Shown: piece after piece, positions 21,340-27,117 of the stretch | How positions within the stretch are numbered: position 1 is the stretch's first letter | Layout of the letters: every line of letters starts with the position of its first letter | From: Deltaproteobacteria bacterium | GTDB lineage: Bacteria; Myxococcota; Kuafuiibacteriia; Kuafuiibacteriales; Kuafuiibacteriaceae | Direction: 5' to 3' | Assembly: GCA_040218735.1 (NCBI GenBank) | Contig: JAVJQW010000041.1 | Coordinates: 160,001-224,000, forward strand | Length of the DNA: 64,000 nucleotides | Notes under the pieces: generated by a model | The model's input: the letters and a program-made list of their open reading frames with translations, nothing else | What the model was told of the DNA's origin: nothing | Database searches by the model: none | Made by a program: the position numbers and the translations under genes

Positions 21340-24300
21340 ATGGCCCCCCGCGTTCCGCCCAGGTCCCCGCCCCGCCCCGCGCCGAAGCGCAAGGCGCGCA
21401 GCCCGGTGAAGAAGAAGGTCACGCCGCAGAAGAAGCGCGCGCCCAAGGCGACGTCGGGGAAGCGAACGTCGAAGCTGGGGGCGGCGAAGAAGAAGCGCAC
21501 GCCGACGGCGAACCGTCAGCGCGCGGGAGGCGTGAACGGGGCGGCGAGGTCGAAGCGCGGTGGTGCCGGCGGCGTCGGCGCGACCGCAGCCCAACGCGCA
21601 AGGCCGGCTACGGGCGTGAATCCACCGAACGGCGTGGCCGCGCACCGCGCGAACGCTATGCGCGGCGCAGGCGCCGCGGTCGGAGCGAACACTGCGAACG
21701 TCGCGGCGGGGAGGAACGCAGCGACGCGGGTCAACGCGGCGACGGGCGTCAACGCGGCGACGGGCGTCAACGCGGTGACCGGCGTGAACACGGCGAATGC
21801 AGTCCTCGGCGCGAATGAGACGACCGCACGTACCGGCGAGAACGCCGGCAACGGCGCGAGCCGCGGTAACGGAGCCAAGGACACGAACACAGCCGACGGA
21901 GCCCACGGCAAGAACGGCGGCAACGGCGCGACCGGCGGCAACGACGCCAACGCCCGGAACAGCGTGAACGCCGGCAACGCCGCGAACGGCGCGAACGGAG
22001 CGAACGGCGCGAACGGCGCGAACGGCGCGAACGGCGCGAACGGAGCGAACGGAGCGAACGGAGCGAACGGAGCCAACGGCGCGAACGGCGCGAACGGCGC
22101 GAACGGCGCGAACGGCGCGAACGGCGCGAACGGAGCCAACGGCGCGAACGGCGCGAACGGCGCGAACGGCGCGAACGGAGCCAACGGCGCGAACGGAGCC
22201 AACGGCGCGAACGGAGCCAACGCCGCGAACGATAAGAACGCCGGCAACGGCACGAACGCCCCCCAAGACATCCCCGAGCGCGATCGCCCCGAGCCCGTCG
22301 GCGACGGCTTCGTCCCCAACCGCGAGGCGCGCGATCGCATGCGCGGCGTGGTCGACCAGCTCGTCGAGCGCGGCGAGGGCCTCGGCATGGACACCAAGCG
22401 CTTCTCCGCCGCGGCGAACGACTTCTTCGACAACCCGACGCCCGAGGGCTGGGACAAGTTCCGGACCGAGTTCGACGAGCTGCAGGGCATCGGCCCGCGC
22501 AGCGACGCGGCGCGCGCCGAGCGCGAAAAGAAGGAGGCCGCAGAGCGCGAGCAGTCACGCCTGCGCCGCGACGACGACCGGCAGACCGCCGACCGCCTCC
22601 GCGACGGCACCCTGACCGGCGAGCAGTTCGTCGATCGGCTGGGCGGCGACGACCAGGTCTTCGACCGCTTCCGCGAAGGCGAGCTGAACTACAAAGACCT
22701 CGAGCGCGCCTACGGCGACAACGGCCGCGCGCTCGACAAGGCCCGCGAGATCGGTGGTCGCGACCTCCACGACGAGGTCTACAAACAAATGACCACCGAC
22801 GTCGTGCAGCGCTACCAAGGCACGCGCAACCTCGACCAAGACGTCGGCTACGCGCGCACCGGCGAAGCCGCGCAGGAGAAGCTCGACGCCGCCGCGAAGC
22901 AGTACGGCTTGAGCCCGGCCGAGAAGGAGGGCGTCGCAAAACGCGCGGGCCGAACGATGGACGAGCGGCGCCGCTACACCGACGCGCACGAGCTCGTCGA
23001 GGGGGCGTCCCGCGAGCAGCGACACGCCGCCGATCTGCGCGACGTCAACCAAGCCGCCGCGCGCCTCGACCCGGACAAGACCGAGAACTTCGACGCGATC
23101 CGCGCCACCGATCAGCGACAACAGGACCTCTACGACCAAGTGCGCAACGCGGAGAGCCTCACGCCCGCCGACGTGGACCGCCTCGGGCGCGAGTACGACG
23201 AAGCGCAGAAGCAGTACCTCGCGGACACGTACGGCGCCGACGGGCCCGCGTTCGGTGAGGGCGCGGACGGACGCGCGGTGAACGACTATCTGAGCAAACC
23301 GGGCTCCGCGATCGTCGACGAGGCGATCCTCCGCCGTGCCGAACACCGAAACCGCGCCGGCCTCCAACGCGGGGAGCTCCCGCGCCGCGACAACGTCAAC
23401 GCCATGTTCGGGCGCGCCGCGAACAACCCGGACGCCGACCTTCGCGACCTCCAGATCGGGCACCCCGCGAACCCGGAGCACAAGAAGGAGGACTGGCACC
23501 GCACCGAGCTGAAGAACCACGACCTCACCGGGCGCGACCTCACGGGCTCCGACCTTCGCAACACGCGGCTGTCGCGAATGAACCTCCAGGACGTGAAACT
23601 GACCGGTGCCGATCTCACGGGCGCGAAGCTCGACCGCACCAACCTCGGCGGCGTGGACCTGACGACCGTGCGAGGTCTGAAGCAGGCCGACCTGAAGGGC
23701 GCGTACTACGACGGTCAGACCCGCTTCCCGCACGGCTTCGATCCAAAGGCGGCGGGGATGATGCGCATGGTGACGCCGAAGGACGACTTCGCGACGCACC
23801 AGCAGCACACCGCCGAGATGTTCCGCCCGCAGCTCAACGCGCGGACGCTCCAGGAGGCCGGCCACTTCCCGAACCCGCTCTTCGGTGACCAGGGGCAGCC
23901 GCTCACTGTCGGGCGCGACACGTTCTTCGACAACCGCCAGCAGGATCTACGCAACACCGTTCGCGATCAGGCGTCGGCCGAGCGGAAGCTCCTCGAGGAA
24001 CACGGCGGATGGGCGGGCGCGCAGCGGCACGTCGATGGTCTCGCGAACCGCGCGGCGCGCGATGTCCTCACCGCGCGTGGCCTCGACCCGAACGATCCCG
24101 AGAACGCGGAAGCGCTGCGCACGGAGCAGACGAAGGCGCGCGAGAACGTCTCGCAGATGCTGCTCCCGATGCACGGCGAGGCCGCGCAGCGCGCGCGCGA
24201 AGCCGGCCTCGAAGGGAAGGCGTTCGACGACGCGCTCGGGAAGAACTTCTCGGACATCGAGAAGGAGCGGTGGCGCGCCGCGGGCGGCGGCGACGGACTG

Positions 24301-27117: not shown

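Follow-up and report, generated by a model that had tools for sequence, protein, structure and literature searches.

A giant protein with two toxin-like modules in tandem at its C-terminus, on a carrier found in four known proteins, from a deltaproteobacterial genome

The concept of polymorphic toxins, with the Rhs, CdiA, LXG and MafB-type proteins as its examples, was reportedly laid out by Zhang et al. in 2012, and ART-PolyVal, an ADP-ribosyltransferase (ART) of the polyvalent proteins of phages and conjugative elements, is said to have been described by Iyer et al. in 2017. Multi-effector toxins of the MARTX type combine RTX repeats and a processing protease with a dedicated type I secretion system (T1SS). 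For the ternary conflict systems that join MoxR to a protein with a von Willebrand factor type A (vWA) domain, Kaur et al. 2020 describe a variable third component that has a membrane-spanning segment, and their list of domains that can take the effector position in vWA proteins includes pentapeptide repeats (PMC7159879). Here, we compare with these systems a single giant gene that lies in a 64,000-nucleotide stretch of the genome of a Deltaproteobacteria bacterium (phylum Myxococcota; GenBank assembly GCA_040218735.1, contig JAVJQW010000041.1, positions 160,001 to 224,000 of the forward strand). This stretch is hereafter called the window, and positions are those of the window unless a contig label precedes them.

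On balance, we lean toward the view that the product of this gene is a toxin of the polymorphic type, delivered by export or on contact and mounted on a previously undescribed carrier. The carrier, of ~1100 residues, is made up of charged regions, pentapeptide repeats, hydrophobic segments and a pre-toxin linker and is found in only four known proteins, and the last 500 residues consist of two modules that circulate independently among bacterial proteins. The combination is best filed as a fusion, unique to the carrier family, of a BECR-like tip (domain A) with an ART-PolyVal-like module (domains B and C). The parts of the gene and of its product are as follows:

21340..27117, + strand: the whole gene, 1925 amino acids (aa) plus stop codon; GC content at third codon positions (GC3) 0.90
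21340..21531, + strand: basic, Pro-rich leader, residues 1-64, with 23 Lys/Arg, no Asp/Glu and no hydrophobic core
21532..22314, + strand: Ala/Gly/Asn-rich low-complexity region, residues 65-325, with 26 GAN triplets
22315..23484, + strand: charged region I, residues 326-715, family-specific, within the stretch that matches the relative P0076
23488..23739, + strand: pentapeptide-repeat region, residues ~717-800, matched by PF00805 and by NCBIfam pentapeptide models
23740..24849, + strand: region II, residues 801-1170, family-specific in the comparison with P0076 and the family
24865..25125, + strand: two Gly/Ala-rich hydrophobic segments, residues ~1176-1262, from hydropathy and the four-member alignment
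25237..25626, + strand: Pro-rich linker and conserved pre-toxin stretch with RGHG[IV]DGLP; swap junction near residue 1409
25627..25959, + strand: domain A, residues 1430-1540, an unnamed polymorphic-toxin end module with a predicted BECR/CdiA-CT-like fold
26077..26616, + strand: domain B, residues 1580-1759, a conserved extension before domain C, from homologue alignments
26617..27114, + strand: domain C, residues 1760-1925, a predicted ART fold nearest to ART-PolyVal, from model and alignment

The modules were delineated in a HMMER search of residues 1301-1925 against 1.84 billion representatives, which returned 310 matches at E<=1e-3, 105 at 1e-10 and 25 at 1e-30. The matches split cleanly between residues ~1430-1537 (domain A) and residues ~1580-1925 (domains B and C, with the core at 1765-1925) and, among 40 related genomes, each module was found once, in different organisms and in different proteins. 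Searches of the C-terminal 500-625 residues against Pfam (E<=10), NCBIfam and the sequences of the Protein Data Bank (PDB) gave nothing meaningful. Position counts for domains A and C were taken over the best 150 of the 310 matches, five further proteins and the window protein.

The proteins in which domain A occurs give good support to its role as a toxin tip. In 88 of the 98 holders, no more than 25 residues separate its end from the C-terminus, and in seven it is followed by a tail of 42-89 residues; in the other three, all from the family of the giant protein, it is internal, with ~385 residues after it. When 34 holders were scanned with Pfam, seven turned out to be Rhs-type proteins (two of them also with SpvB and FG-GAP), five contained eCIS_core and five contained annexin repeats, three matched PT-HINT only and one Ntox1 only, and 13 matched no family. 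Among 41 short members, PT-HINT, RHS and PT-TG recur, PT-TG coming from a further member beyond the 34 scanned, and none of the 41 matches Ntox50 (PF15542). The family alignment contains nearly invariant Lys, His, Arg and His residues, which correspond to K1438, H1447, R1497 and H1508 in the window protein. In a genome of the same taxonomic family (G004), domain A ends an annexin-repeat protein (L095, G004:C36, 8264-12343), which also starts without a signal and has hydrophobic stretches rich in Gly and Ala ahead of the toxin; the gene for this protein is readable only in three successive frames, implying two apparent frameshifts or assembly errors.

The fold of domain A was examined in an AlphaFold2 model built on the family alignment (pLDDT 88). 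Foldseek found no PDB structure at E<=0.001, and the top rows, non-significant with a best E of 0.27, included HigB, RelE and a contact-dependent inhibition (CDI) complex. Exhaustive structural alignment against 48,161 chains, in which Z-scores below 8 can reflect common arrangements only, singled out two chains with Z>=5, both of them toxin domains: 5t87_E (Z 6.4, root mean square deviation (rmsd) 2.6, 64 of 69 residues) and 9v8i_B (Z 5.1, rmsd 3.1, 78 residues). After these two, the Z-score drops to 3.9, and RelE, YoeB, ParE, MafB2-CT and CdiA-CT Kp342 reached 2.9-3.5, mixed with WD40 blades. The first of the two, 5T87 chain E, comes from Cupriavidus taiwanensis and is its CdiA-CT toxin (PMC9111745); the second, 9V8I chain B, is the tRNase YxiD-CT, which has the BECR fold and is placed in Ntox50 (PMC12700104). 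Ntox50 was also the best named lead in a language-model search of domain A, at a low 0.82-0.83. The family-profile search of PDB sequences found neither 5T87 nor 9V8I, and tblastn of domain A against plasmid records gave no match. A match of the domain A profile to a blade-like motif of tectonin was set aside as a common beta-hairpin pattern. We therefore hold with moderate confidence, on the strength of the model, that the fold is BECR-like, and RNase activity is probable by analogy with toxins of that fold.

The second module extends over domains B and C. Its model (pLDDT 90) likewise gave no Foldseek row against the PDB at E<=0.001, and the top rows were MbcT (E 0.029), RES toxins, tankyrase, PARP2, exotoxin A and diphtheria toxin. 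In the exhaustive alignment (VIA), 28 chains reached Z>=5 and none Z>=8, with MbcT as the best (Z 7.9, rmsd 4.7, 149 residues aligned). By title, 30 of the 36 best rows are of the ART type, including PARP domains, toxins of the diphtheria and exotoxin A types, RES/MbcT, NatT, ParT, Tpt1 and Arr, and these cover model residues ~185-351. Comparison with the predicted viral structures of BFVD gave two rows at the best E of 9.3e-4, one of them named ART-PolyVal-like, a name carried by seven of the 50 best rows. Language-model search with ESM placed domain C closest to PF18760, ART-PolyVal (0.91), with 22 of 30 hits in the PF18760 set. The hidden Markov model of PF18760 itself gave a single weak match (E 0.019) among 22 domain C relatives, Pfam at E<=10 did not report this family in the window protein, and a profile search of PDB sequences with domains B and C yielded chance-level rows only. 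Thus, the model-based assignment of an ART fold to domain C is well supported, and ART-PolyVal is its nearest named family, as a neighbor and not as a family to which it belongs by sequence.

Conservation in domain C was counted over 56 aligned instances, with fewer aligned at some positions:

Position 1774: His in 54 of 54; window protein, His
Position 1801: Tyr in 55 of 55; window protein, Tyr
Position 1907: Asp in 38, Asn in 13 and Glu in 2 of 56; window protein, Asp
Position 1908: Arg in 51 of 56; window protein, Arg
Position 1913: His in 49 of 56; window protein, His
Position 1914: Glu in 44, Gln in 7, Gly in 2, Lys in 2 and Ala in 1 of 56; window protein, Gly

The His and Tyr of the ART NAD+ site are both kept in the window protein (H1774 and Y1801). 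The two Gly residues at position 1914 are those of the window protein and its closest relative, P0002, and the third family member, P0003, has Glu. To judge from the alignment, the catalytic acid of domain C may be at position 1914 or at position 1907. Since G1914 replaces the common Glu, this ART-like warhead may have lost some or all of its activity.

Domain C is found in a broader range of settings than domain A, being C-terminal in 22, internal in 25 and N-terminal in 9 of the 56 instances, and domain B precedes it in many relatives. Structural rows for domain B were weak and partial, with subtilisin-propeptide-like and small-barrel folds at Z 3-4. Most holders of domain C are dark giant proteins: 23 of the 31 scanned with Pfam matched no family, and two contained an OTU protease, one of these coming from a Legionellales metagenome-assembled genome (MAG). 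As a side observation, P0044 / P0157 (from the Legionellales MAG) and P0081 are giants of 3143-4931 aa that join domain C to an OTU-like cysteine protease, which hints that the domain C module also occurs in effectors aimed at eukaryotic hosts. Within the phylum, domain C was found in two of 401 genomes, the one that contains the window included, and tblastn gave no match in 50,697 phage records or in plasmid records.

The carrier was searched for in 5.8 billion clusters, with residues 330-1420 as the query for proteins of near lengths and residues 820-1420 for shorter ones. The family thus recovered consists of the window protein, P0002 (1846 aa, 96% identical), P0003 (1000 aa, 66% identical) and P0076 (1362 aa); all other matches were to pentapeptide repeats. 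Both C-terminal modules occur together only in the window protein, P0002 and P0003, and domains A, B and C are kept at 66% identity in P0003. P0076 is 51% identical to the window protein over residues 326-1409 and continues with ~240 unrelated residues, and because the homology ends near residue 1409, we place the swap junction there and conclude that the toxin end has been exchanged. The alternative C-terminus has no relative among proteins of 749-2384 aa, and P0076 starts with a Lys-rich leader that is unrelated in sequence to that of the window protein. A conserved N-terminal and central part with a replaced C-terminus is accordingly present, as one swap among four proteins. Paralogues of this kind are absent from the genome that contains the window (none for seven non-repetitive segments of the giant protein), and the single swap comes from another assembly. 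Neither the 19 further genomes of the order and class nor 400 genomes of the phylum (a stricter first look) contain a relative of the carrier, and 40 related genomes gave pentapeptide matches only. Two scans of metagenome contigs found no relative.

An earlier note, made from the letters of the window alone, had described an open reading frame (ORF) of ~1925 aa with a K/R-rich start devoid of secretion signals, a Gly-X-Y repeat, helical regions, pentapeptide repeats, two Ala/Gly-rich hydrophobic segments, a coiled coil and two distinct toxin-like domains in tandem, with no recognizable Rhs, VgrG, PAAR or CdiA families. The ORF at 21340..27117 (+) and nearly every feature on this list are real; for the putative helical regions and coiled coil, the analysis covered composition and conservation. 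The GC3 of every segment lies between 0.86 and 0.91, as in the flanking genes, so that the whole frame is coding and compositionally at home; an alternative TTG start upstream, at 21310, would give 1935 aa in place of the 1925 aa counted from the ATG at 21340. The 23 Lys/Arg of residues 1-64 are accompanied by no acidic residue, and in the entire protein Kyte-Doolittle hydropathy exceeds 1.2 only at residues 1181-1209 (maximum 1.57) and 1233-1251 (1.25). The leader therefore lacks the h-region of a signal peptide, and there is no Sec, Tat or lipoprotein signal; the two hydrophobic windows coincide with the Ala/Gly-rich segments. Together with the RGHG[IV]DGLP stretch, these segments contain long runs that are invariant in all four proteins of the carrier family. 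Pfam matches in the giant protein are limited to collagen and pentapeptide repeats, and neither Pfam nor NCBIfam finds any Rhs, VgrG, PAAR or CdiA family. The pentapeptide repeats (PF00805, residues ~717-790, E 1.2e-09) score 38 bits against a cut-off of 20.2. The collagen match (PF01391, E 3e-07, 30.5 bits against a cut-off of 27.2) arises from the periodicity of 26 uninterrupted GAN triplets at residues 217-294, which are encoded by a 9-bp unit repeated 35.6 times in tandem (21912-22231). P0002, although 96% identical, does not have this expansion, so the length of the repeat differs between close strains, and such minisatellite variability argues for a variable spacer over a stable triple helix. 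The tandem toxin-like domains are borne out by the context of the homologues and by the folds of the models. The same note would have abandoned the toxin reading had the C-terminal domains shown no toxin folds or proved invariant among homologues; the models of domains A and C match toxin folds, and P0076 has an unrelated C-terminus after residue 1409.

If the giant protein is a delivered toxin, it would leave the cell by a route that needs no Sec or Tat signal, and the hydrophobic segments would help the C-terminal part to cross or enter the target membrane. Domain A would then cut RNA, by analogy with BECR-fold toxins, and domain C would use NAD+ to ADP-ribosylate a target or would destroy NAD+.

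Self-protection of the producer has no obvious counterpart next to the gene. The 71-bp gap downstream (27118-27188) holds only a 20-codon frame and a frame that overlaps the adjacent MoxR gene and thus no plausible immunity ORF, just as the earlier note had reported. In G004, a 109-aa ORF (GC3 0.94, no family) begins 18 bp after the domain A gene and is a candidate immunity gene.

Several of these observations weigh against a delivered toxin. All structural Z-scores for domains A and B+C are below 8, Foldseek against the PDB returned nothing at E<=0.001 for either model, and by sequence neither domain can be placed in Ntox50, in ART-PolyVal or in any further family of Pfam or NCBIfam. Domain C shows no toxin-tip behavior in the positions it occupies among its 56 instances, and the window protein has G1914 where 44 of the 56 have Glu. 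The polymorphism amounts to one swap among four proteins. There is no immunity-sized ORF downstream of the giant gene, and the genome that contains the window encodes no relative of the 109-aa ORF of G004 (best E 0.13). Finally, the protein has no known trafficking or secretion domain and nothing that would indicate export: Pfam and NCBIfam find no family of the Rhs/PAAR/VgrG, two-partner secretion/filamentous hemagglutinin (TPS/FHA) or LXG kinds, and the N-terminus is not hydrophobic.

The genome as a whole offers several candidate export routes. It has seven matches to FHIPEP (FlhA/SctV), which are full length on contigs C23, C59, C41, C70, C38 and C9 and partial on C16, and this is an unusually large number of type-III-type export gates for one genome. 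The type VI sheath protein TssC was not found in this genome. A region resembling an extracellular contractile injection system (eCIS) lies at C9:518345-603477 and C20:180110; its two eCIS_core (PF13699) genes are frames of 1667 and 1622 aa, and the sheath matches at C9:543579, 545906 and 603010 are three of the four in the genome. There are also 66 RHS-repeat matches, in at least 10 large frames, one of them of 4708 aa (contigs C37, C36, C70, C39, C42, C54, C9, C56, C23, C6 and C66). To judge from these matches, the genome is rich in toxin carriers; nothing ties the FHIPEP gates, the eCIS-like region or the Rhs loci to the giant gene. A bolder extension of the delivered-toxin reading would be a new delivery class, in which a basic disordered leader and a hydrophobic pair carry interchangeable toxin cassettes out of the cell through type-III-type gates, an eCIS-like particle or MoxR-vWA gating, with the toxins inactive until release and hence no need for an immunity gene. 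We regard this extension as unlikely.

The immediate surroundings of the giant gene bear on a serious alternative. Upstream are a lipoprotein-like gene on the - strand and a carboxyl transferase gene. The former (17676-19283, -) encodes 535 aa that begin like a lipoprotein and match no family of Pfam or NCBIfam, and its frame has a GC3 of 0.90, whereas the + frame that overlaps it has 0.65. Downstream, on the same strand as the giant gene, are two neighbors that are not shown to belong with it:

27189..29735, + strand: MoxR-type AAA+ protein (PF20030, bpMoxR, 1.9e-19)
29732..32131, + strand: vWA protein, with a start that overlaps the MoxR stop

Together these two genes make up a MoxR-vWA pair; the AAA+ gene is its MoxR member and has an ordinary GPPGTGKS P-loop, and the vWA protein, of 799 aa, has a long N-terminal region. 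These genes are followed by an HlyD-like adaptor and a MacB/FtsX permease, 5 kb downstream of the giant gene. In the MacB ORF (33370-35325), the first ~270 codons are an Arg-rich, wrong-frame stretch with a GC3 of 0.75, in which Pfam detects no ABC ATPase domain; a different frame, perhaps the ORF at 33176-34120, probably encodes the ATPase as a gene of its own.

The neighborhood suggests that the giant protein could be an intracellular suicide or abortive-infection effector that is held or released by the MoxR-vWA pair, in the manner proposed for the ternary conflict systems, and acts on its producer. Such a role would explain both the missing signal and the missing immunity gene. It also accords with the arrangement of the genes, which share a strand, are 71 bp apart and have no terminator-like site between them on the + strand, and with the match of the MoxR protein to PF20030, the MoxR of beta-propeller ternary systems, for which Kaur et al. 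2020 report a variable third component and pentapeptide repeats in the effector position (PMC7159879). The comparison of loci points the other way. Relatives of the MoxR gene were located in 65 loci, almost all of which belong to Myxococcota; in 60 of them MoxR is followed by the vWA gene, and the other five end at a contig edge. None of the non-pentapeptide parts of the giant protein has a relative in any of the 65, and neither do HlyD, MacB or the carboxyl transferase. Size and strand of the gene that precedes MoxR differ between loci, and no same-strand ORF of more than 1000 aa abuts MoxR, on ORF maps that are crude and with six of the 65 loci returning no genes. Because vWA is kept and the other neighbors vary, MoxR-vWA is a self-contained cassette, of which the giant gene is not a conserved partner; a role as a variable partner is possible but unsupported by this comparison. 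In addition, Pfam finds no beta-propeller family in the vWA protein, and domain A is elsewhere the tip of exported toxins. All told, we consider it unlikely that the giant protein acts on its own cell in this manner. Five Polyangium-type MoxR loci have a pentapeptide-repeat gene ~7 kb downstream.

The same set of loci bears on the transporter genes. As HlyD and MacB are unlinked to MoxR-vWA elsewhere, the local gene order is a lineage-specific juxtaposition, and we rejected the HlyD-MacB pair as a dedicated exporter on the grounds that none of the 65 related loci shares the linkage. MacB-type pumps are not known to transport giant cytoplasmic proteins.

Less probable still is that the giant protein is a largely degenerate, non-toxic scaffold or surface protein with decayed toxin modules, for which no immunity would be needed. 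Such decay would fit the lack of an immunity gene and of a trafficking domain, the Gly that takes the place of the family's Glu at position 1914, and a low-complexity repeat that varies between strains, but several observations speak against it: all nearly invariant positions of the domain A family are retained in the window protein, domain C keeps the His, the Tyr, D1907, R1908 and H1913, the three C-terminal domains are conserved in P0003 to the extent given above, and GC3 and the reading frame are intact throughout.

The parallel with MARTX drawn in the earlier note would, in full, make the giant protein a multi-effector toxin that is type I secreted and autoprocessed inside a eukaryotic cell. 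This is very improbable: although several effector-type domains share one signal-less giant protein with a very basic leader, HlyD-like and MacB/FtsX genes lie 5 kb away and domain C recurs in a Legionellales giant with an OTU protease domain, Pfam shows neither RTX or glycine-rich repeats nor a cysteine-protease processing domain, and the transporter is of the MacB type, not a T1SS ABC exporter, and is next to MoxR-vWA in none of the 65 related loci.

Under the favored reading of the giant protein as a delivered toxin, the locus adds to the toxin catalogue two modules for which there are no models, namely, a widespread BECR-like tip linked to Rhs, eCIS and annexin proteins and an ART-PolyVal-like enzyme with a 180-residue extension. 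It also joins both in a single polypeptide, on a carrier that only four of billions of proteins share. A toxin without a signal, a trafficking domain or a neighboring immunity gene is also a test case for how predatory bacteria with large genomes achieve export and self-protection, and the conserved MoxR-vWA cassette is itself uncharacterized in Myxococcota.

Compared with the known systems, the giant protein resembles MARTX toxins in being a single signal-less polypeptide with more than one effector domain and differs from them in having, by Pfam, no RTX repeats, processing protease or dedicated T1SS. The likeness to MoxR-vWA ternary systems of the beta-propeller subtype resides in the bpMoxR-type AAA+ and vWA genes directly downstream on the same strand; on the other side, Pfam detected no beta-propeller, the P-loop is ordinary, and none of the 65 related loci has a relative of the non-pentapeptide segments of the giant protein. 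As in ART-PolyVal, domain C occupies varied positions in giant multidomain proteins, but the window protein has no PF18760 match and domain C is preceded by the conserved N-terminal extension of ~180 residues (domain B). The best structural matches of domain A are CdiA-CT (5T87 chain E, CDD cd20695; Z 6.4) and YxiD-CT (Z 5.1), with the BECR-fold RNase toxins RelE, YoeB and MafB2 near Z 3.5; unlike these toxins, domain A has a profile that finds no such PDB sequence and members that, in 41 of 41 cases, do not hit Ntox50. The closest correspondence is with polymorphic toxins. The giant protein departs from these in having no known trafficking domain or repeats and no adjacent immunity gene, and in carrying two toxins in tandem with domain A internal, as in only 3 of the 98 holders, in a family of four known members. 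It shares with them the combination of a conserved N-terminal and central region with a replaceable C-terminal toxin, and domain A itself forms the tip of Rhs, PT-HINT, PT-TG and eCIS-core proteins.

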